Shown in pieces: positions 1 through 43,235 of a stretch of 43,235 bases of DNA. Position numbers and translations under genes: made by a program. Within the stretch, counting starts at the first letter, position 1. Each line of letters begins with the position of its first letter. Where the stretch lies: the IMG/VR virus record IMGVR_UViG_2645727669_000018; one strand, written 5' to 3'. Source of the DNA: a virus (taxonomy: Duplodnaviria > Heunggongvirae > Uroviricota > Caudoviricetes). Under the pieces are notes generated by a model. That model saw only the letters and a list, made by a program, of their open reading frames with translations, ran no database searches and had not been told where the DNA came from.

Positions 1-1209
1 ATGTCGGTTTTTCATAACTGGCTGCTTGATATCGCAAGCGGGAATTACTTTATCTACATCAAACGCCTTTCTGCAAACGACACAGGCGCAACAGGTGGCC
101 ATCAGGTCGGACTTTATATCCCCTCAAATATCGTTGAAAAGCTTTTTCCATCTATCAATCATACTCGCGAACTGAACCCTTCAGTCTTCCTTACTGCGCA
201 TGTATCATCCCATGATTGCCCTGATACCCAAGCACGCGCAATTTATTACAACAACCGTTATTTTGGTAAGACCCGAAACGAAAAAAGAATTACGCGCTGG
301 GGGAGAGGAAGTCCATTACAGAACCCTGAAAATACAGGAGCCCTCACAATTCTTGCTTTCAGGTTAAACGAACAGAACACTGACTGTTCCGAGGTAGATA
401 TATGGGTCTGCGTCAATCCCGATGAAGAGGATATCATCGAGTCTGCTATTGGCGAAATCATACCTGGAACCCTAATTTCCGGCCCTGCCGGACAAATTTT
501 GGGCGGATTGTCTCTTCAGCAAACTCCAGTAAATCATAAATATGTTATTCCTGAAGACTGGAAGAAGCGTTTTCCTTCTGGAAACGAAATTATTCAATAT
601 GCTGCTGGCCATTATGCTAAAAACTCCAAGGATCCAGATGAGCAACTGATTGACCGTCGGCGTGTCGAGTATGATATTTTTCTACTCGTCGAGGAATTAC
701 ATGTTCTTGATATTATTAAGAAAGGATTCGATTCTGTAGATGAGTTTATTGCATTAGCCAACTCTGTCAGTAATCGACGTAAATCAAGGGCAGGTAAATC
801 ACTTGAACTTCACCTAGAGAAGCTTTTTATCGAGCACGGACTACGGCATTTCTCCACTCAGGCAGTTACTGAAGGTAATAAAAAACCAGATTTCCTGTTT
901 CCTTCAGCAGAGGCATATCATAACGTTGAATTTCCTGTAGAAAACTTACGTATGCTGGCAGTAAAGACCACCTGCAAAGATCGCTGGCGTCAGATACTGA
1001 ATGAAGCAGATAAAATCCATCAGGTACATTTATTTACGCTGCAAGAAGGTGTTTCTTCAGCACAATACCGGGAAATGAAAGATGCGGGTGTCAGACTCGT
1101 TGTACCATCAACTTTACATAAAAAATACCCAGAAGCAGTTAGAGAAGAATTAATAACGCTCGGAGCATTCATTACTGAGCTGATAGAACTTTACGCTGAA
1201 CTATCATAG
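1..1209 (+). CDS. ecoRIIR: Type IIE restriction endonuclease, EcoRII-like (CCWGG-type)
   Basis: 402-aa ORF beginning at window base 1; sequence recognised from memory as very close to EcoRII along its whole length (N-terminal effector domain plus C-terminal catalytic domain); convergent with a Dcm-type cytosine methyltransferase as in the EcoRII system. Not searched. Confidence 0.8.
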   Translation: MSVFHNWLLDIASGNYFIYIKRLSANDTGATGGHQVGLYIPSNIVEKLFPSINHTRELNPSVFLTAHVSSHDCPDTQARAIYYNNRYFGKTRNEKRITRWGRGSPLQNPENTGALTILAFRLNEQNTDCSEVDIWVCVNPDEEDIIESAIGEIIPGTLISGPAGQILGGLSLQQTPVNHKYVIPEDWKKRFPSGNEIIQYAAGHYAKNSKDPDEQLIDRRRVEYDIFLLVEELHVLDIIKKGFDSVDEFIALANSVSNRRKSRAGKSLELHLEKLFIEHGLRHFSTQAVTEGNKKPDFLFPSAEAYHNVEFPVENLRMLAVKTTCKDRWRQILNEADKIHQVHLFTLQEGVSSAQYREMKDAGVRLVVPSTLHKKYPEAVREELITLGAFITELIELYAELS

Positions 1210-1243: not shown

Positions 1244-2677
1244 TCAAGGCTGCCCAGTCTTACCAGCATCAGCAGAAACAGCTTTGAGGATATAGGGTTC
1301 CAGAAGTCTGGCAACGGCTTCAAATACTGGCACCACAACGGAGTTACCGAACTGCCGATATGACTGAGTATCTGAAACCGGAATACGGAATGGTTTCCCT
1401 CCAGGTTTTTCAAACCCCATAAGGCGTGCGCACTCTCGGGGAGTCAGCCTGCGTGGTCGACGAGCCTGGTTACTCTCATTCATAAAGTCAGCCTCTCCCG
1501 TTGCCATATCCCAACCACGATCAATAAGAATTTCTGATCCGTCTTTGTGATATCTGGCAGAAAGTGTGCGTGCAATGCTTTCCTTATTCTCAGGATTGAC
1601 CAACCCAAAGCCAAAACCATTCCCCTTGGCTGCATGCTTTTTGGCGTAGTTATAAAGGTACTCCCATAGTTTTGGCGTAAGTATATATTTACTGTCGACT
1701 ACAGGCTCCAGCAATTCACCAAATGATGGGCGGTGTTCCGGATAAAAACGACTGATATCACGCAAGGTAAACCCCTTGTGAATATTCAGATCTCGTCTAA
1801 ATCCGACCAGAACAATGCGTTCACGATGCTGAGGCAAAAAATGCTTCCCATCGATAATCTTTGGATCGTTTTTTCCCATTTCTGCAGCATCGGCAACTTC
1901 GTAGCCCAGCTCGTCAAGGGTCTCCATAATGACTTTGAAAGTTTTACCCTTATCATGGCTCTTCAGATTTTTGACATTTTCCAGCACAAAAATTGCCGGT
2001 TTTTTTGCTCGTATAATACGTGCCACGTCAAAAAAAAGTGTTCCTTGTGCTTCACATTCAAAACCATGCGCACGACCAAGTGAGTTTTTCTTACTAACAC
2101 CAGCAAGGCTAAATGGCTGGCACGGGAACCCCGCAAGAAGCACATCATGATCCGGCACATGCTCATCAATATATGCATAAGCATCCGTTTCCAATACATC
2201 GGTTTTATCACTCAGCGTGACTTCCCGAATATCGAGATTGAATTTATGCACCTGTTCATCGTTAAACCAGTTGGCCTTGTATGTACGCACAGCATCTTTA
2301 TTCCATTCACTGGTAAAAACACACTGGCCTCCAATGGCCTCAAAACCTTTCCGTATCCCTCCAATTCCAGCAAATAAGTCAATGAAGCGGAAAGCATATT
2401 CCGGATGGTTTGCAGGTGGTTCTGGTAGCATCTTACGCAGAAGAGACTCTTCTACTGAAGTCAACGATTTTGGTAAACACTTGCCATTAATCCAGCGGTT
2501 GATGGTTTCACGGCTCCACTCATTTTTTCCGACTTTTCTCAGTAATTCAGCCACATACTTCTGATCATAGATTTCCAGCACTTTCTCGATAAGCTTTTTA
2601 TCATTTTCCTGTCGCAGCTTTTCTTCCGCCTCGGCTTCCTTCAGCAGATGCTGTGCCAACACTTCAAATTCAGACAT
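1244..2677 (-). CDS. ecoRIIM: DNA (cytosine-5)-methyltransferase, M.EcoRII/Dcm-like
   Basis: C5-MTase motifs in translation: [10 protein letters not shown] (motif I), GFPCQPFS (catalytic Cys, motif IV), FVLENV (motif VI), QFGNSV (motif X). Start moved from ORF-track 2719 to ATG 2677, which has GGAGG 5 nt upstream and gives 477 aa. Confidence 0.9.
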
Positions 2678-2984
2678 AATTCCTCCAAGGGGTCTAATGG
2701 GTGAAACTCTATCACTCATTCAACCCAGAAGGAAATGTTTTATCTGGATATTTAAACAGTGACTACAACGTAATCTAGCACTGGTGATGCTTTGTTAGGC
2801 ATAGAGAATCATTCTATATACGACTAATGACAGAAAAACAGCAGACAAGTAGTTTGTTCATAAATTAACGCATACTACGTGCCTACGGTTTTCGAGACCG
2901 GTCCAATCATCAAACGAAACATAAAATTAGCTCACATTATGAGGAAAAGTATCTTTTTTGTACTATGTAAATTCAAAGGCTTAG

Positions 2985-3854
<870 letters not shown>

Positions 3855-3911: not shown

Positions 3912-4466
3912 TCATTTATCTCCGACCGGAAACTTCTTATACAGTGTCGATATACCAACATCATAGATGATCGCCACCTTCTGGCGAGGAACGCCTGATG
4001 CAATTAATCGCCCGGCCTGCGCCCATTGTTCTGGTGTAAGTTTGGGACGACGTCCACCAATTCGTCCCTGTGCGCGAGCAGCTTCCAGTCCAGCTTTTGT
4101 TCGTTCAACAATCAGTTCTCGTTCCATTTCAGCCAGGGCACCCATCACATGAAAGAAAAAACGCCCCATCGGTGTGCTGGTATCAATAGCATCCGTCAGG
4201 CTGCGAAAATTAACGCCACGTTCGCGCAACTCCTCAACCAGAATGACCAGATGCCGCATACTACGCCCTAGCCGATCCAGCTTCCAGACAACCAGAGTGT
4301 CACCTGCCGATAATGTCCTGAGCAGTTTTTTCAATCCCGGCCTTTCGGACTTTGTACCGCTTATCTTGTCTTCAAAAATCAGCTCGCATCCTGCACAGTT
4401 CAGCGCATTACGTTGTAGATCTGTGTTCTGGTCATTTGTTGACACACGTACATAGCCAATAAGCAT
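3912..4466 (-). CDS. pin: Serine DNA invertase, Pin/Gin/Hin/Cin family
   Basis: MLIGYVRVSTNDQ...WKLDRLGRS serine-recombinase catalytic motifs and C-terminal HTH; 184 aa from ATG 4466 with GGGAG-type SD upstream; adjacent to an invertible tail-fibre segment. Confidence 0.9.
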   Translation of the reverse strand: MLIGYVRVSTNDQNTDLQRNALNCAGCELIFEDKISGTKSERPGLKKLLRTLSAGDTLVVWKLDRLGRSMRHLVILVEELRERGVNFRSLTDAIDTSTPMGRFFFHVMGALAEMERELIVERTKAGLEAARAQGRIGGRRPKLTPEQWAQAGRLIASGVPRQKVAIIYDVGISTLYKKFPVGDK

Positions 4467-4520
4467 GGTAGATCTCCCTGACAAAAGCAGGAATGATGCC
4501 ATTTGCTCGTTATTTCTGCA

Positions 4521-5695: not shown

Positions 5696-6354
5696 AATTT
5701 CCCAATTCCTAAAATATGGACATCATCAGCCTTACGGGCATTCCAGGTGACAATTACATCGGTAGAGTGACGATTAACTGAGATTGCGTATGCTTCGTTA
5801 GTCGAGCCAGAAACTTTTGTGGCAAACACAGCAAACAGGACACCAAATGACTGGGGCCATTTATAGCCTGACAGCTGATAATTACCATTATTCAGTGTTA
5901 CAGCTTTGGCTGCTGCACTTGATGGAATCGTCAGCCACTGGAGTATCAACCCTCCTGGCAAAAGTTGTTTTCCGTAATAATCCCTCACCCCACTAAATGA
6001 AACCATGTCCGGTATCTGATTTTCCCCTGTGCCCACATTCCGTTTTGCCGCTTCTCCCAAACCAAGGTTTTCGAGAGCCGTTTTCACCGTGCCATCCGAT
6101 TTGATATCGCTAAACGGATTCTTGCGGCTTAACAGCAGCGCACGAAGCGCGGTAAGCAGCTGGTCATGCCGCCCCTTCTCCAGGCTGGCACCGGATGCCT
6201 CCACCACGCTGCAGAGTTCTTCCTGCAACATATCAAAGTAGTCATCATCAAGATCGGTGGCAGGTGTGCCGGTCTGGGGGTTACCACGGGTAAAACCGTT
6301 TTTACCCGCGCCGAACTTATCCTTCTGCGCGGTTTTCGTGTCTATACGATGCAT
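5692..6354 (-). CDS. Side tail-fibre protein (constant N-terminus plus invertible C-terminus)
   Basis: 220-aa ORF spanning the recombination site at 6064/6065; N-terminal about 100 aa outside the segment, C-terminal about 120 aa inside; resembles e14/Mu-type short fibres (from memory). Confidence 0.75.
6052..6077. repeat. hix/gix-like 26-bp recombination site (fibre-proximal boundary)
   Basis: ttctcccaaaccaaggttttcgagag; core AAACCAAGGTTTT matches the hix consensus core (from memory); inverted relative to the site at 4521-4546. Confidence 0.65.
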
Positions 6355-11416: not shown

Positions 11417-11947
11417 TTAGCGAGTCAGAAACAACGAATCTTTATACTTTTGCTGTTGTTCATTTAAATACTTAGCTGTTTCATCGCTGGCAAATGGAAA
11501 TATTACCGTATTTTTAGGCATGGTAATTTCTTTTTTGTCCAGCGTCAGAGTAAACATAGGAACATACTGAGCAGAGTAACGCACCGCAGAAACGAGCTCT
11601 AGTTTAGACTCTTCAATAACACTTAAATTATCCAGGCTAACTTTCTCTTCATCTTTTTTCTTTGACGCATTTAAAGTTTTTATTACTTTATTTAATTTCT
11701 CCTGAAAATCCTCCTTAAAGTTTTCAGGATTGCCGTCGACAACAAGAATCTGTTCACCCTGATTATCTGGAAAAATAATCTTTGCACTTATCAATTTATT
11801 TTCTTTATAAACATCACCAAGTTTTATGGCTCCTCCAGATAACTGAATAATATGTTCATCTTTAAAGGAGATGTTGCCAGAGATTATGAGAGATGAAAAA
11901 ATAGCCGCTGCTCCAAGAATTACACTTGCTGTGATATAGCCTTTCAT
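11417..11947 (-). CDS. Hypothetical exported/membrane-anchored protein (moron inside tail operon)
   Basis: 176 aa, visibly AT-rich, Lys/Asn-rich; N-terminal hydrophobic segment (VILGAAAIFSSLIISG) suggests signal peptide or anchor; own candidate promoter and terminator. Confidence 0.6.
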   Translation of the reverse strand: MKGYITASVILGAAAIFSSLIISGNISFKDEHIIQLSGGAIKLGDVYKENKLISAKIIFPDNQGEQILVVDGNPENFKEDFQEKLNKVIKTLNASKKKDEEKVSLDNLSVIEESKLELVSAVRYSAQYVPMFTLTLDKKEITMPKNTVIFPFASDETAKYLNEQQQKYKDSLFLTR

Positions 11948-24379: not shown

Positions 24380-25162
24380 TTATTTTTTCTTCTTATTTAA
24401 CTTATCTAAATTGACGGGATCTTTCCCTGTGGCAGCTAAACACCAAAAAGAATAACTCTTTTGCATGACATAGGTTCTAATTCTCTCTAATGTTTCATTA
24501 TATTTTTTCTCAACAACCTGTATCGCATGTTCAAATAAATTAATCATATCAACATGCTCGTCCTCGACACCAATCATGCTCAGTTGTTTTCTATCTGTCA
24601 CTGCTTGATAAAATGTTTTCCCATTTTTCCTTATTAGTAACAATGAAGTTTCTGCTGACTCATAGTCTTGGTTGCCGCTATGTGCTGCAAAATTATGCCT
24701 GTAGTTAATAATACAGTCATGCAACCCAAAATATTCAGAATCAAGCCAATCACGCTCCATCTTTAACTTTCTCCCTTTAGCTTCAGAGAAAGCTTTACCA
24801 TAAAACGTTAGGCTTGCCACAAATAACGCTCTAATTTCACTTGATAAATCTAGATCAAGTATATTCCCGTATAACTTGCCATCTGTCCTTAATTCGTTTC
24901 TCCCTGCCAGTTCATTAGCTATTTGGTACCACTCTTTAGCACTTTTTAAGTCCCTATGAATTAGGGACAGTGAAGATGCTCTATCGGCAATACGCCCACT
25001 CAATTTTATGCGATCTACAATTTCATTATTGAATGTATAAACCGCTTTAAATTCCCCCGTTTCGGAATCAATATAATATTCAACATCTAACCCTTCATAT
25101 GATTCACACCCGGGACCTTCTAATTTTTTTCTTTTCATATAGAATATCCATATACGTTTCAA
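24380..25162 (-). CDS. Hypothetical protein (AT-rich moron between Rz and HNH)
   Basis: 260-aa ORF (TTG at 25162; first ATG at 25138 gives 252 aa); Lys/Asn/Tyr-rich, visibly AT-rich; no recognisable motifs; own terminator. Confidence 0.6.
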   Translation of the reverse strand: MKRIWIFYMKRKKLEGPGCESYEGLDVEYYIDSETGEFKAVYTFNNEIVDRIKLSGRIADRASSLSLIHRDLKSAKEWYQIANELAGRNELRTDGKLYGNILDLDLSSEIRALFVASLTFYGKAFSEAKGRKLKMERDWLDSEYFGLHDCIINYRHNFAAHSGNQDYESAETSLLLIRKNGKTFYQAVTDRKQLSMIGVEDEHVDMINLFEHAIQVVEKKYNETLERIRTYVMQKSYSFWCLAATGKDPVNLDKLNKKKK

Positions 25163-26785: not shown

Positions 26786-27727
26786 ATGAGTACAGAAAAT
26801 AAGAATAAAACCAGGCGAGTGAGAGTTGGTTTTTTCACTGGTAATGGAAGCAAAAAAGATGGCACATCTGCTGCAAAACTAGCCTTTGAGCAAATGACCA
26901 CAGCAGATACTGTAACTTTTCCAATAACTTACACAACAGACACCCCAAGTCGAGGGTTAAAGTTAGTTATTCTTCAAAAAGATACCACACTGCAATGTTA
27001 CTTTGGTTACGTATCGTGGAGAAGGGAATGCCTACTACCGTTCATCGAGGATGCTACAGGTAGTGAGAGAACAATTCCTTTAAATGATAAAGATTCTGTA
27101 GTTGAAAGAACATATTTTATCTATTACTACGAAACGGACTTATTAGCTATGACCCTCAACCATATAGGGCCCAAAGTAAATGATCTGGCATTCATTTTGT
27201 ATAACAAAACTGATTTAAAAAGCGTCACTTTTGAAGCCATTTGGAAACAAGAGAGCATGAAGGAACTGCTTGAGGACGGAAATATCCTACGTAGTTTCGA
27301 TCTTATAGTTGCTGCTCCAAGAAACTTTAACAAAGCTAATTATAAGATTAAAAACCCTTTAGCTAATGAAATTATTGACATGGTTGTTGGTATGGGCGGG
27401 TCGCATCTAAGATTAAATATGCGAGGTCGGATTCGCCCGAAAAAACAAGGGTTTAACTATCTAAAAACTTCTGTCACCGATGCTATTAAGGAACTACTTG
27501 AACTTTTTCCAAAAGGTTCTGGAGGTCTAAAAATTAAAAAAATTGATGTAACAGAGCCATCCAATAGAACGCCCAAAAGTCTACTTGACCAAGTATTGGT
27601 CAGTACAAAGACAATCATTGTCAAAAGCGGTTATCCATCCGATTCTGATATCAGAACGGCGATGATATCTGCTAAAATTGATAACGCGAACTATCTTGCA
27701 CAGTATGAGCTCGCTAGCAGAGACTAA
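26786..27727 (+). CDS. Hypothetical protein, first gene of a two-gene Q-S cassette
   Basis: 313 aa, AT-rich, on the strand opposite to the late genes; no recognisable motifs; stop 21 nt before the partner gene start. Confidence 0.7.
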   Translation: MSTENKNKTRRVRVGFFTGNGSKKDGTSAAKLAFEQMTTADTVTFPITYTTDTPSRGLKLVILQKDTTLQCYFGYVSWRRECLLPFIEDATGSERTIPLNDKDSVVERTYFIYYYETDLLAMTLNHIGPKVNDLAFILYNKTDLKSVTFEAIWKQESMKELLEDGNILRSFDLIVAAPRNFNKANYKIKNPLANEIIDMVVGMGGSHLRLNMRGRIRPKKQGFNYLKTSVTDAIKELLELFPKGSGGLKIKKIDVTEPSNRTPKSLLDQVLVSTKTIIVKSGYPSDSDIRTAMISAKIDNANYLAQYELASRD

Positions 27728-27748
27728 TAACCAAGCATGGAGGACACA

Positions 27749-28198
27749 ATGAGAGAATTAGCCACTTTTCTCTGGAAATGCGTCCTCTGGATTCTGTTGA
27801 CCTATGCAGCGACAAAACTGTTTAAACCGATGAAGCATGCTGACGTACTCACAACAGCGGGGGTGCTCTCGACTATATCAGGCATCCTGTTTGGTTTTGT
27901 TCTGGCTGCAATATCTATATTTAGTAGTGCAAACAGCGATAAGGAAGGAGCAATTAATGCCCTTAAGCAAAACAACGTGTTACCAACTCTGGTAAATAGA
28001 TTACTTTCAACAGGGTTAACTCTCATCGTCGCATGTATATTTCCATTGATAGCGATGTTTCTACCTGATGATGTTATTGTTGCGGGCAAACCTATTGATT
28101 TCCTGTTCATACTGTTAGGCTTATCCTCCCTTATAATTTCGCTATATACCTTCGGAAGGTGTTGGTTAGTGTTACGAAAAATCTTCCCCCACTTGTGA
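27749..28198 (+). CDS. Small polytopic membrane protein, second gene of Q-S cassette
   Basis: 149 aa from ATG 27749 (GGAGG 5 nt upstream; ORF track starts at 27737); about four hydrophobic helices. Confidence 0.7.
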   Translation: MRELATFLWKCVLWILLTYAATKLFKPMKHADVLTTAGVLSTISGILFGFVLAAISIFSSANSDKEGAINALKQNNVLPTLVNRLLSTGLTLIVACIFPLIAMFLPDDVIVAGKPIDFLFILLGLSSLIISLYTFGRCWLVLRKIFPHL

Positions 28199-38880: not shown

Positions 38881-39087
38881 ATGCTGAACCTCGATTGTGT
38901 TCCAATCTCAACTTATTGCAAAGAAACTGGCGAAACTCCTGAAGCAATAAACAAACGTGTACAGCGCGGTGTTTGGCGTGAAGGTGTTCAGGTTTTAAAG
39001 GTTGAAGGCGTTAAGGAGAGGTGGATTGATCTTAGTGAGGTTGCAAAATGGGCCAGACAAAACTGCTCAAACTACCGCGCGGCGTAA
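38881..39087 (+). CDS. xis: Excisionase-like protein
   Basis: 68 aa from ATG 38881 (GGAG SD); small basic protein overlapping the integrase start as in lambda xis-int. Confidence 0.55.
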   Translation: MLNLDCVPISTYCKETGETPEAINKRVQRGVWREGVQVLKVEGVKERWIDLSEVAKWARQNCSNYRAA

Positions 39088-40220
39088 CAATCAGGAAACA
39101 CCGCCTGGGCGAAACGATCAATATAACTTTCACCTATAAAGGAGTTAAATGTCGTGAGCCTCTTTCCAATCTGGAAGTAATACCAAAGAACATAAAATAC
39201 GCCGAGCGCACACTCGGCGAAATTCATAATAAGATCGAAAGGGGAACATTCATTTATGCGGAATATTTTCCCCGTTCTGCTCGTTTGAAAATTTTTGGTA
39301 ATGCTGCTGCAGGCAAAACGGTAAAAATGTACCTGGACGAATACCTTGAAATCTGCGAAACGAGAAAACTTTCACCCTCTACGATTGGTGGTTATAAAAA
39401 ATGCCGTAGTGCGTTAGCCTCACTCCACATTTGCCCTGCAAGTGAATTAACACCAGCAATCCTGAAAGCGTGGATTCAAAGCCAGAAAACGACCTTAAAA
39501 ACAATTCGCAACCAGTTATCTTTCCTGCGGTCAGCACTTGATGAAGCCGTAACCGATGGGGTACTTCAAATTAACCCCGTATCGTTGGTAACTGCTTCGC
39601 GCTACCAAAGTGATAAGTCAGAAGCAGAAAGCAGCTACGTGGTTGATCCGCTATCACCAGCAGAAGTTGATGCATTACTAGCAGCAGCCGGAAACAAACA
39701 ATGGGAAAATCTGTTCCGGTTCGCTATACATACAGGCCTGCGTAGTTCTGAATTATGTGCCCTTCGATGGCGTGATATCGACTTTGTTGGAAAAACTGCC
39801 CATGTCCAGAGCGCAAGTGTTGTCGGTGTTATCAAAGGGACAAAGACAAAAGCAGGTACTCGGAAAGTTGAACTGACAGAAGAGGCAATGTTGGCGCTGA
39901 TAAATCAGAAGCCATTTACATTCATGAAGGATGCTACTGTCTTTGAAGATCCAAAGACCAATAAGCCTTGGGCAAGTGCTGATGCAATTAGGAAAAAAGC
40001 ATGGGTGCCAACATTGCGAAAAGCAGGTATTCGTTACAGAAACCCATATCAAACCAGGCATACATTCGCCACCAGCCATATCAGCCGAGGAGCAAACCTG
40101 TTTTGGCTTGCAGCTCAAATGGGGCATAAAGGGCCGGAGATGCTTTTCAGGCACTATGGTTCGTATCTTAAAGAGTATGATAACTTTACATCGATAAATC
40201 ATTTGCATAATCATAATTAA
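39048..40220 (+). CDS. int: Tyrosine integrase (lambda Int family)
   Basis: 390 aa; C-terminal catalytic region with conserved Arg, HxxR-like and terminal Tyr context (RHTFATSH...LFRHYGSY). Confidence 0.9.
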   Translation: MGQTKLLKLPRGVTIRKHRLGETINITFTYKGVKCREPLSNLEVIPKNIKYAERTLGEIHNKIERGTFIYAEYFPRSARLKIFGNAAAGKTVKMYLDEYLEICETRKLSPSTIGGYKKCRSALASLHICPASELTPAILKAWIQSQKTTLKTIRNQLSFLRSALDEAVTDGVLQINPVSLVTASRYQSDKSEAESSYVVDPLSPAEVDALLAAAGNKQWENLFRFAIHTGLRSSELCALRWRDIDFVGKTAHVQSASVVGVIKGTKTKAGTRKVELTEEAMLALINQKPFTFMKDATVFEDPKTNKPWASADAIRKKAWVPTLRKAGIRYRNPYQTRHTFATSHISRGANLFWLAAQMGHKGPEMLFRHYGSYLKEYDNFTSINHLHNHN

Positions 40221-40229
40221 TATTTAATA

Positions 40230-40258
40230 ATCCCCGCATTTTTAAAATCGGGGATTTA
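40230..40258 (+). terminator. Stem-loop after integrase
   Basis: atccccg-(12-nt AT loop)-cggggat, 10 nt after the int stop; T-rich loop but no 3' T-tract. Confidence 0.35.
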
Positions 40259-40261
40259 AAG

Positions 40262-41041
40262 TTGATTACAATTACATTCGACAAACTAATCACCTACATA
40301 TCTTCAGTTGGTACTTTCATTTCAGCAATTGCTGCATTATATGCAATATGGTTAACGATATTTCAAAGAAGGCTCTCTTATAAACCCAATTTAGTGATAG
40401 ACACTTTAAATGTCAAGATGAATGTTAACGATTTCAACGGTTTTCATGTTGATATCTTACAAGCCCCTACGCTTCCACAAACAAAATTTTCAAACATAGG
40501 ATTGGGGGCGGCAATTTCACTTAGATATCATTGGGATTTTAATTATAAAAAAAACATAAATCTATACTTAGAGTTGTTTTCGAAAAAATTCAAAAAAGAA
40601 GATAAATCTTTTACAACCGACTCCCAGTATGGAATGTTCAAAATAATAAAAGAAAGAAAAGTATATATGTACAATACTTTATCGACACCTTACGATATTG
40701 ATTTTTCGTTACCATATAGTATAGATAAGAAGTCAAAAAACATTTTTGTACCAACCGCGGCAATTGATATTCTATTGAATATAGCATATCTTTCACATAG
40801 ACTTAAATTAGTCGGTTCTTCATCATTCACTGGTCCAAAATTAATTATTGAATATCAAGATATAGAGGGTAAAACTAAAAAAGTCACTTGGCAAACAAAA
40901 TTGGAACGTGGAGTGGCACGTTTCAGTGGTGATAATATGGAGGCAGATTTTGCACTACGGTTTACACCTGTACCAGAGAAATGGACTACAAAAGGTCTAG
41001 AGAAGATACGCAAAAGCGCCGCAAACGCCATGTTCAGATAA
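40262..41041 (+). CDS. Hypothetical membrane-anchored protein (AT-rich cargo between int and att)
   Basis: 259-aa ORF from TTG 40262 with N-terminal hydrophobic helix (ITYISSVGTFISAIAALYAIWLTIF); Lys/Asn/Ile-rich; no recognisable motifs. Confidence 0.55.
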   Translation: MITITFDKLITYISSVGTFISAIAALYAIWLTIFQRRLSYKPNLVIDTLNVKMNVNDFNGFHVDILQAPTLPQTKFSNIGLGAAISLRYHWDFNYKKNINLYLELFSKKFKKEDKSFTTDSQYGMFKIIKERKVYMYNTLSTPYDIDFSLPYSIDKKSKNIFVPTAAIDILLNIAYLSHRLKLVGSSSFTGPKLIIEYQDIEGKTKKVTWQTKLERGVARFSGDNMEADFALRFTPVPEKWTTKGLEKIRKSAANAMFR

Positions 41042-41071: not shown

Positions 41072-41106
41072 TTCAGACACGGGTTCAACTCCCGCCAGCT
41101 CCACCA
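41072..41106 (+). other. ssrA: ssrA (tmRNA) 3'-terminal fragment / prophage attachment-site core
   Basis: 41081-41106 GGGTTCAACTCCCGCCAGCTCCACCA matches the tmRNA 3' acceptor/T-arm end as recalled; upstream similarity decays within about 10 nt into AT-rich phage DNA. Confidence 0.8.
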
Positions 41107-41152: not shown

Positions 41153-41186
41153 AGCCCGCACGGCGCAAGCCCTGCGGGCTTTTTTG
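41153..41186 (+). terminator. Rho-independent terminator (native ssrA terminator)
   Basis: agcccgca-(12 nt)-tgcgggct followed by tttttt, about 47 nt after the CCA end. Confidence 0.75.
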
Positions 41187-41310
41187 TGCCTTGAATTTGT
41201 CCCGCGAAGTCTGATGCCAACTAATTAAATCCGAACCTTTTAGGCACCTTGTTAGGCACCTCATAAAGCTTTATTGTTTTTGAGGTGCCTAAAACTATGG
41301 AAACCCGGCA

Positions 41311-41367: not shown

Positions 41368-43235
<1,868 letters not shown>

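Follow-up and report, generated by a model that had tools for sequence, protein, structure and literature searches.

A prophage in the virus record IMGVR_UViG_2645727669_000018 of IMG/VR (Caudoviricetes) carries, close to one of its attachment sites, a gene for a 259-residue protein, which is the subject of the present analysis. The window, i.e., the whole stretch of DNA analysed, is 43,235 nucleotides long, and the coding sequence (CDS) of the protein lies on the plus strand at 40262..41041, with a TTG start and a TAA stop. It occupies the whole interval between the tyrosine integrase gene int and a duplicated 3' end of ssrA. The initial annotation placed the start of the feature at 40230; this position belongs to a hairpin, not to the CDS, which begins at 40262. 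The same annotation described the gene as cargo between int and the attachment site, and this was borne out, as sampled sibling prophages with the same integrase hold other gene sets there, three of which are known defence systems. As an accessory ('moron') gene of an ssrA-integrating temperate Escherichia coli phage, the gene lies in an exchangeable slot extending from the last int codons to the attP core.

Reading from the preceding in-frame stop codon, the TTG at 40262 is the sole start codon reached before the hydrophobic segment of the protein; the next in-frame starts are a GTG at 40394 and an ATG at 40418. No part of the protein is better conserved than residues 9-42, which are encoded ahead of the first ATG, and TTG is therefore accepted as the true start. 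It had been proposed from the beginning, and it is supported further by the membrane helix encoded from it, where conservation within the family is highest (87% top-residue frequency versus about 50-56% elsewhere). TTG or GTG starts were likewise found in the majority of the homologous loci checked. RefSeq/PGAP annotates the identical CDS in sibling genomes under the name hypothetical protein. Translation from a later ATG, yielding a soluble member of some known family, is not what the data show.

The GC content of the gene is 32.7% (28% at third codon positions), compared with 44% in int and 49.8% in the window, in agreement with the earlier description of the gene as AT-rich. The protein was also described as rich in Lys, Asn and Ile. 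Lysine (10.4%) and isoleucine (9.7%, equal to leucine) fit this description; asparagine makes up only 5.4% and was overstated. The protein has no cysteine and a pI of 9.7. The ratio of nonsynonymous to synonymous substitution rates (dN/dS) is 0.22, 0.20 and 0.13 against homologues of 89%, 78% and 57% identity, respectively, which is purifying selection; for codons 1-42 it is as low as 0.04-0.07, versus about 0.2 in the globular domain. The open reading frame (ORF) is thus firmly a real, conserved gene.

In a set of 5426 complete E. coli genomes the gene was present in 50, always as a single chromosomal copy at least 99% identical, and its carriers include O25b:H4-ST131. No plasmid copy was found by tblastn in PLSDB. 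The integrase occurs in 412 of these genomes; this difference in number, together with the absence of the gene from siblings with other cargo, argues for an accessory rather than a core phage function. The occupants of the slot were established from the sampled sibling prophages with the same integrase. Strain A2 has PD-Lambda-5 in this position (subunit B at 5.8e-124, preceded by the AAA ATPase), O121 WL1277 has AbiL (AbiLi 4e-101, AbiLii 5e-29), and AR_0369 has DarTG, with DarT accompanied by a NADAR antitoxin (DarT 2.5e-13, plus PGAP names). In GN4741 the slot is taken by a second member of the family studied here, which is 28% identical. The slot is therefore firmly regarded as a defence-rich hotspot. 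Three further gene sets are of unknown function. S88 (L009, 4165-6035) carries a weak match to a histidine-kinase-like ATPase (below the Pfam cut-off), a DUF4325 (STAS-like) protein and a 199-residue protein; CFT073 (L010, 4187-5375) and WP2-S18 carry proteins of 127 and 271 residues; EC20017429 (L040, 4927-6849) carries a ParA-family protein with two small proteins. The ParA-family protein gave the sole PADLOC match among the sets of S88, CFT073 and EC20017429, and this match was weak (2e-7, candidate model). By their position these three sets are candidate new defence systems.

Homologues of the gene are located in the corresponding slot of the functional phage LLS (gene 31, 27% identity), of a Klebsiella prophage and of a prophage from a metagenome. 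The paper describing phage LLS deduces attP in ssrA and does not discuss gene 31. In Enterobacter hormaechei, a remnant of 2.2 kb between two ssrA cores (L012, 4599-6850) keeps only a 272-residue ORF, which has no Pfam match, and the homologue, together with a stub of the int 3' end, the promoter-like hexamers and the hairpin described below. The E. hormaechei homologue was found on eight contigs; a three-ORF core is common to the four loci read, and at two of these the bare remnant comes right after smpB. The remnant looks like cargo kept after loss of the prophage. In Cedecea, a homologue has an AbiTii gene on one side and a SymE gene on the other. The loci examined did not reveal any conserved partner gene. 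One distant member (275 residues; L031, 7001-7828) lies on an integrative element with a large serine recombinase and an ArdC-like gene and adjoins a HxsD/radical-SAM cluster.

The protein belongs to an uncharacterised family. It matches PHROG 7259, to which no function is assigned, over its full length (E 1.4e-86; residues 7-259 against profile positions 6-270 of 277). Three other PHROG matches were weak (E 0.009-2.2), all of them to families of unknown function, and no PHROG with an annotated function, exclusion or other, matched the protein. A word-indexed search returned 21 clusters of close homologues, all from Enterobacteriaceae and all unnamed; hardly any further members came from repeating the word-indexed search with the wide alignment. 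The identity of homologues ranges from 27 to 95%. A full profile search gave 703 representatives of about 240-280 residues at E <= 1e-3, of which 213 also passed E <= 1e-10. The family is proteobacterial, with about 700 representatives. Among the matches listed (150 of the 703), most are 230-290 residues long and nearly all align from the N-terminus. Members were identified in Klebsiella aerogenes, Pseudomonas, Candidatus Thiodiazotropha and an alphaproteobacterial metagenome-assembled genome, and all are labelled 'hypothetical protein'. The profile of the close-family alignment found no match in the genome contigs searched, and phage LLS was the only match by tblastn among phage records.

The claim that the protein has no recognisable motifs holds in part. 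No family of Pfam-A, NCBIfam or PADLOC matched it; membership in PHROG 7259 and motifs shared within the family do exist. These are S21-A22-x-A24-A25 in the helix, Q35-R-x-x-S-Y-K-P42 directly after it, and N78-I-G-L-G-x-A84, L150-P-x-S and G191-P-x-L-x-I-x-Y-x-D-I-x-G in the globular part, where the protein itself has the forms NIGLGAA, LPYS and GPxLxIEYQDIEG. In the close family the top-residue frequency is 0.87-0.88 for residues 9-42 versus 0.49-0.56 elsewhere; in the wide family the respective values are 0.49-0.68 and about 0.3. Pfam searches with 64 diverse family members gave single weak matches for only two of them, which were taken as chance. The divergent E. coli paralogue had no PADLOC match at E <= 1e-5. 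A profile search of PDB sequences returned chance matches only (E about 1).

Codons 9-42 (40286..40387, plus strand) encode a transmembrane helix (residues 9-34) and a juxtamembrane motif QRxxSYKP (residues 35-42), according to hydropathy, conservation, an AlphaFold2 model and charge bias. The single N-terminal helix proposed in the initial annotation is supported by hydropathy, with residues 9-34 being the only strong segment (mean Kyte-Doolittle value up to 1.99 over 19 residues). In the AlphaFold2 model, residues 6-39 form a helix, and the fold core is predicted with confidence. A strong N-terminal hydrophobic segment is present in 94% of 161 family members, these being the members of at least 200 residues. 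Codons 43-238 (40388..40975, plus strand) encode a mixed alpha/beta globular domain, predicted to be cytoplasmic, which carries the NIGLGAA, LPYS and GPxLxIEYQDIEG motifs.

According to the positive-inside rule, the flank of a membrane helix that is rich in Lys and Arg is on the cytoplasmic side. In the 161 members, the 15 residues before the helix contain on average 0.45 Lys+Arg (net charge -0.73), and the 15 residues after it contain 3.65 (net +2.76); 96% of the members have more Lys/Arg after the helix than before. From this bias an N-out/C-in orientation is predicted. The protein would span the inner membrane once, with some 8 N-terminal residues in the periplasm and a domain of about 200-215 residues in the cytoplasm. 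Strong conservation of the helix and its face of small residues suggest that it makes specific contacts in the membrane beyond anchoring. A signal peptide or lipoprotein was considered and dropped, since there is no Cys or lipobox and no positively charged n-region. A periplasmic location of the globular domain was dropped because the charge bias is opposite. A second transmembrane helix at residues 160-180 was also dropped: hydropathy reaches only 1.43 there, and the model packs the segment on a sheet with a pLDDT (predicted local distance difference test) of about 93.

Upstream of the gene lies the tyrosine integrase gene (39048..40220, plus strand; Arm-DNA-bind_2 3.6e-21, Phage_integrase 3.7e-16). 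Its start is overlapped by a small ORF of 68 residues (38881..39087, plus strand), annotated as a CDS in siblings, which has no Pfam match and is a probable excisionase; its equivalent in phage LLS is annotated 'putative excisionase'. Sibling integrase genes with different cargo cease to resemble each other about 40 nt ahead of the stop codon of int, and the last 13 or so int codons are therefore considered to belong to the exchangeable cargo cassette. A consensus scan found promoter-like hexamers here on the plus strand (40203..40231), namely TTGCAT (40203-40208) and AATAAT (40226-40231) separated by a 17-nt spacer. In nine homologous loci AATAAT is invariant and a -35-like hexamer stands at a fixed spacing of 17-18 nt, while the spacer sequence drifts; the scan recovered the hexamer pair in 8 of the 9. 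The end stub of int with the hexamers persists upstream of the gene in E. hormaechei and Cedecea, where int has been lost. The pair is probably a sigma-70-like promoter of the gene's own, placed within the 3' end of int.

The hairpin AATCCCCG...CGGGGATT (40229..40256, plus strand) follows immediately. Its 5' arm consists of the end of the -10 hexamer and the discriminator, and its 3' arm holds the Shine-Dalgarno sequence GGGGA (40250..40254, plus strand; read from the sequence), 7 nt before the TTG. The minimum free energy is -12.3 kcal/mol over 43 nt (z -3.2), and z reaches -3.75 for a 61-nt stretch. Equivalent hairpins are present in LLS, E. hormaechei, Klebsiella, one metagenome locus and three IMG/VR loci. 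The stems differ in sequence (CCCCG/CGGGG, TCCTGCC/GGCAGGA, TCTCGTCC/GGGCGAGG, CCCCCGGCA/TGCCGGGGG), and at these seven loci the hairpin is stable and its 3' arm includes GGAG, GAGG or GGGG. The z-scores range from -2.6 to -6.4; the Cedecea version is weak and mismatched (-2.3). The Shine-Dalgarno sequence had been located in a hairpin after int at the outset, and the recurrence of this arrangement with compensatory stem changes in the seven loci confirms it: a hairpin with an embedded ribosome-binding site is firmly conserved. A canonical intrinsic terminator after int was considered and dropped, the stem having no U-tract after it.

Such an arrangement would probably make expression low and specific to the lysogen, with TTG providing weak initiation. 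Transcripts from the gene's own promoter would start in the hairpin loop (about 40237-40240) and lack the 5' arm, so that the Shine-Dalgarno sequence remains accessible. In transcripts that continue from int, the complete hairpin would form and occlude it. A promoter-like site was also seen on the minus strand (40416-40388), in which a perfect TTGACA and TAAATT stand 17 nt apart. It points back over the region coding for the transmembrane helix, the start codon and the hairpin, and could drive an antisense RNA. A similar minus-strand site is found at about the same place in 5 of the 9 homologous loci. Promoter-like matches are common in AT-rich DNA, with 4.8 expected per 1.6 kb.

On the downstream side, tandem 11-bp direct repeats AGAAGATACGC / AAAAGCGCCGC (41001..41022, plus strand) fall within codons 247-254 (EKIRKSAA). 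At loci with unrelated cargo the repeat block is non-coding and stands 60-85 nt before the core; the pair is kept in eight loci with four unrelated types of cargo. One sibling prophage has a similar pair (AAAAGGATACGC, AAAGGAGCCGTG) in its P' arm (L035, 4857-4880). The repeat pattern is unique in the window (1 match versus 0.13 expected), but 12 of 100 shuffles also gave a match. The coding tail has low synonymous divergence with a dN/dS of 0.8-1.8, a noisy estimate from only 21 codons, and it is absent in 56% of the wider family. The repeats are probably arm-type sites of the integrase in the P arm, with the reading frame running through them.

The duplicated 3' end of ssrA, GGTTCAACTCCCGCCAGCTCCACCA, lies at 41082..41106 on the plus strand and was identified by sequence match. 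A 23-nt pattern, which we take to be the 3' end of ssrA, matches 41084-41106 and occurs only once in the window; the annotated ssrA of a sibling genome ends with the same 23 nt. No complete gene for the transfer-messenger RNA (ssrA) was found within the window. In a sibling prophage ssrA is situated about 235 nt left of the position equivalent to base 1 of the window, and 41082-41106 is therefore the attR core, with the gene wholly on the P-arm side. Just past the core a terminator scan revealed a terminator-like hairpin with a T-run (41167..41190, plus strand). Judging by its position, it is probably the native ssrA terminator, at which transcription of the cargo gene would stop in the lysogen. 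In several genomes (L002 of strain R12 at about 6307-6325, L008 and L010), ATCATGATTGGACGG directly follows the attR core. This is the start of the P' arm as found at a sibling attL (L035, 4766-4785), and it differs from the post-core sequence in the window. Its position after the attR core suggests leftovers of earlier integrations at the same site.

At the opposite end of the window, other defence genes are found. These are an EcoRII-type endonuclease (1-1209, plus strand; Pfam EcoRII-N and EcoRII-C, PADLOC REase_II 1.5e-233), a C5 cytosine methyltransferase (1244-2719, minus strand; Pfam DNA_methylase, PADLOC MTase_II 4e-230) and PD-T4-3 (3030-3854, plus strand; GIY-YIG domain, PADLOC 3.4e-139). 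Because the sibling ssrA lies about 235 nt to the left, the complete EcoRII-type restriction-modification (RM) system and PD-T4-3 would be situated across attP from the 259-residue protein gene in the circular phage, forming one cargo cluster with it. A Pin-type invertase (3912-4502, minus strand) adjoins this cargo. Beyond attR, a second integrase starts at about 41311; it corresponds to an intact 413-residue integrase of the Arm-DNA-bind_3 type in strain T43 and is interrupted near 41368, some 19 codons from its start, by an element of the IS21 family. The latter is represented by istB (41434-42168, minus strand; IstB_IS21 3e-109) and istA (42213-43235, minus strand; rve and helix-turn-helix domains), which runs off the window. 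Patches of low GC content (0.39-0.47) are present within the prophage at 24380-25162 (minus), 26786-28198 (plus) and 11417-11947 (minus). Their ORFs of 260, 313, 153 and 176 residues have no Pfam or PADLOC match and may be additional accessory genes.

Since related prophages carry known anti-phage systems in the same gap, a defence gene is the most likely identity of the 259-residue protein gene. The gene would encode a single-gene anti-phage protein expressed in the lysogen, a reading in which we place middling confidence. The protein would protect the lysogen, and hence the prophage, against other phages. A computational call made before agrees with this. In Table S10 of the DefensePredictor study (DeWeirdt, Mahoney and Laub, Science 2026, PMC13092281), WP_127490476.1 is listed as 'Predicted novel defence gene', with a mean log-odds of 8.59 (range 8.0-9.85) at a cutoff of 4 and negligible similarity to known defence proteins (query coverage 0.06, probability 69). 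This protein is identical to the one studied here except for V51I (translation of the CDS at L011, 4215-4994). The main texts in the literature, searched by protein accessions and by the PHROG number, make no mention of the protein, and a non-exhaustive search of the literature found no description of the slot between int and attP of ssrA-integrating phages.

As to the mode of action, a sensor-effector mechanism can be put forward tentatively within the defence reading, by analogy. The faster-evolving cytoplasmic domain might recognise a component of the infecting phage. The conserved helix might then act in the membrane: it could self-associate and thereby damage the membrane (abortive infection), or it could engage a membrane complex of the host. 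In its fullest form the proposal would be a new family of single-protein inner-membrane anti-phage effectors, widespread in Proteobacteria, in which the SAxAA helix and the QRxxSYKP collar serve as the effector and the diverging cytoplasmic domain as the sensor, translation proceeds only from the gene's own promoter, and the last codons double as arm-type sites. That all of this holds together is possible, though doubtful.

Several observations weigh against the defence reading or against parts of it. In the parts of the DefensePredictor tables that were searched, no sign of an assay of the protein was found: WP_127490476 occurs there only in Table S10, WP_001407079 and WP_136752589, which are the same or a nearly identical protein, occur in none, and no entry of 259 or 258 residues was found in Tables S6 and S7 (PMC13092281). 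The overall validation rate of these predictions was 45%, rising with the score, and the call is not independent of the argument from context, because the model uses neighbours such as integrases (PMC13092281). The protein matched no family of PADLOC-DB v2.0.0 at E <= 10, and comparison with BFVD and PDB folds gave no informative match. The slot is not purely defensive, given the occupants of unknown function in S88, CFT073 and EC20017429. Distant family members are solitary, in variable regions or on an integrative element, beside ordinary metabolic genes and with no defence neighbours. The sensor-effector mechanism is an analogy without direct support, and the topology call is based solely on the positive-inside rule. 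The promoter-like site is a 9/12 consensus match in AT-rich DNA, and its -35 hexamer overlaps int codons, which possibly explains part of its conservation.

The other explanations differ in where they place the function of the protein. In superinfection exclusion, the helix would bind a host channel or the incoming tape-measure or ejection proteins in the inner membrane, so that DNA never enters and the cell survives. In favour are the location of the gene in a prophage next to int and att, the single membrane anchor of the protein and the strongest constraint falling on the helix and the juxtamembrane motif, as if the membrane part were the business end; Sie2009 and HK97 gp15 are small prophage membrane proteins that block DNA entry. 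Exclusion ranks second, after the sensor-effector mechanism, and is nevertheless held to be unlikely, since only about 8 residues are predicted to be periplasmic, the large conserved domain would have no obvious role, no PHROG of annotated function was matched, and the spread of the family over distant Proteobacteria and non-prophage contexts fits poorly with the blocking of one entry route. Lysogenic conversion unrelated to defence would have the membrane-tethered cytoplasmic protein alter the envelope, transport, stress tolerance or colonisation. It runs counter to the fact that every identifiable occupant of the slot is a defence system, that known defence systems flank attP on the other side and that the DefensePredictor score is well above the threshold; the libraries searched (Pfam, NCBIfam) revealed no enzyme or transporter signature. 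The slot is nonetheless of a type known for conversion genes, as the O-antigen genes gtr and oac of P22, SfV and Sf6 adjoin int and attP. Clinical lineages including O25b:H4-ST131 carry the gene, the decayed E. hormaechei remnant has kept it, and some distant homologues lie among metabolic genes. On balance conversion appears quite unlikely.

A role in the phage cycle or in prophage maintenance could be that of a membrane factor involved in the timing of lysis, the exit of DNA or the control of integration, or that of an addiction toxin checked by the hairpin, the weak start or an antisense RNA. The TTG start and the sequestered Shine-Dalgarno sequence look deliberately weak, the minus-strand TTGACA site (40416-40388) crossing the start codon recurs in 5 of 9 loci, and the coding tail overlaps the probable arm-type sites. 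Siblings with nearly identical integrases, however, swap the gene for unrelated cargo, so it is dispensable for the cycle, and it persists without phage genes in E. hormaechei and Cedecea. No partner ORF accompanies it, and the abundance of promoter-like matches expected in AT-rich DNA takes weight from the minus-strand site. Holins and type I toxins, which are toxic when expressed, are small and mostly hydrophobic, unlike a protein of 259 residues with one transmembrane helix and a large soluble region of about 215 residues. Such a role is thus very unlikely. That the ORF is decaying or spurious and has no function is hardly credible: its low GC content is atypical, its start is not ATG and databases give it no annotation, but it is under purifying selection, has hundreds of full-length homologues with conserved motifs and a confidently predicted fold core, and keeps 259 codons open in stop-rich DNA of 33% GC.

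If the anti-phage reading is true, the protein represents a defence family of about 700 representatives unrelated to known systems, carried by clinical E. coli lineages including ST131, by Klebsiella and by Enterobacter. The int-to-attP slot of ssrA-integrating phages would then be a hotspot worth mining, with three other occupants of unknown function. The promoter in int codons, the hairpin distinguishing between transcripts and the tail shared with recombination sites would together exemplify how cargo can be fitted into attP without harming integration. If no phage phenotype is found, the gene will be a useful false positive for context-based defence prediction. Prophage hotspot cargo that is probably defensive is already known as a kind, and this protein was flagged computationally before. 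The anatomy of the family with its predicted topology and the definition of the int-to-attP slot of ssrA-integrating phages are new, and so are the promoter-like hexamers, the covarying hairpin that sequesters the Shine-Dalgarno sequence and the coding tail overlapping the probable arm-type sites.

The hotspots of P2/P4 and of other temperate phages and satellites (Vassallo et al. 2022, PMC9519451; the 2026 Nucleic Acids Research study, PMC13586616) likewise hold interchangeable, mostly low-GC cargo at a fixed position of the backbone. As here, their cargo comprises known defence systems, validated ones among them, plus many hypothetical genes. The present slot differs in running from the int 3' end to the attP core; it is bordered on the left within int and on the right by the probable arm-type sites. 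PD-Lambda-5, AbiL and DarTG share with the 259-residue protein gene the same integrase and the same slot, and presumably the same selective reason for being there; they have no sequence or domain kinship with the protein. PD-Lambda-5 was found by functional selection, validated and called a compacted prophage RM and abortive infection system (Vassallo et al. 2022, PMC9519451). These three are two-gene enzymatic systems, consisting of an ATPase/nuclease and a methylase (PD-Lambda-5), an ATPase and RloB (AbiL), and an ADP-ribosyltransferase with its antitoxin (DarTG), whereas the 259-residue protein is a single membrane protein with no catalytic signature.

The DefensePredictor cluster of WP_127490476.1 is one machine-learning call among 1,041 clusters and gives no phenotype, mechanism or anatomy; the match to PHROG 7259 names the family and explains no function. 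A further comparison can be made with the phage and prophage membrane proteins that shield the cell, such as the lactococcal Sie2009, P22 SieA, HK97 gp15 and T4 Imm, which are mostly smaller and act at DNA entry; the PHROG search and the BFVD and PDB fold comparisons gave no kinship with a characterised exclusion protein. Sie2009 adjoins the lysogeny module. The 259-residue protein gene is similarly placed next to the integration module (from int to the attR core, and likewise in LLS), and the conserved hydrophobic helix suggests that its product may be a membrane protein. The product has a predicted cytoplasmic domain of about 215 residues.

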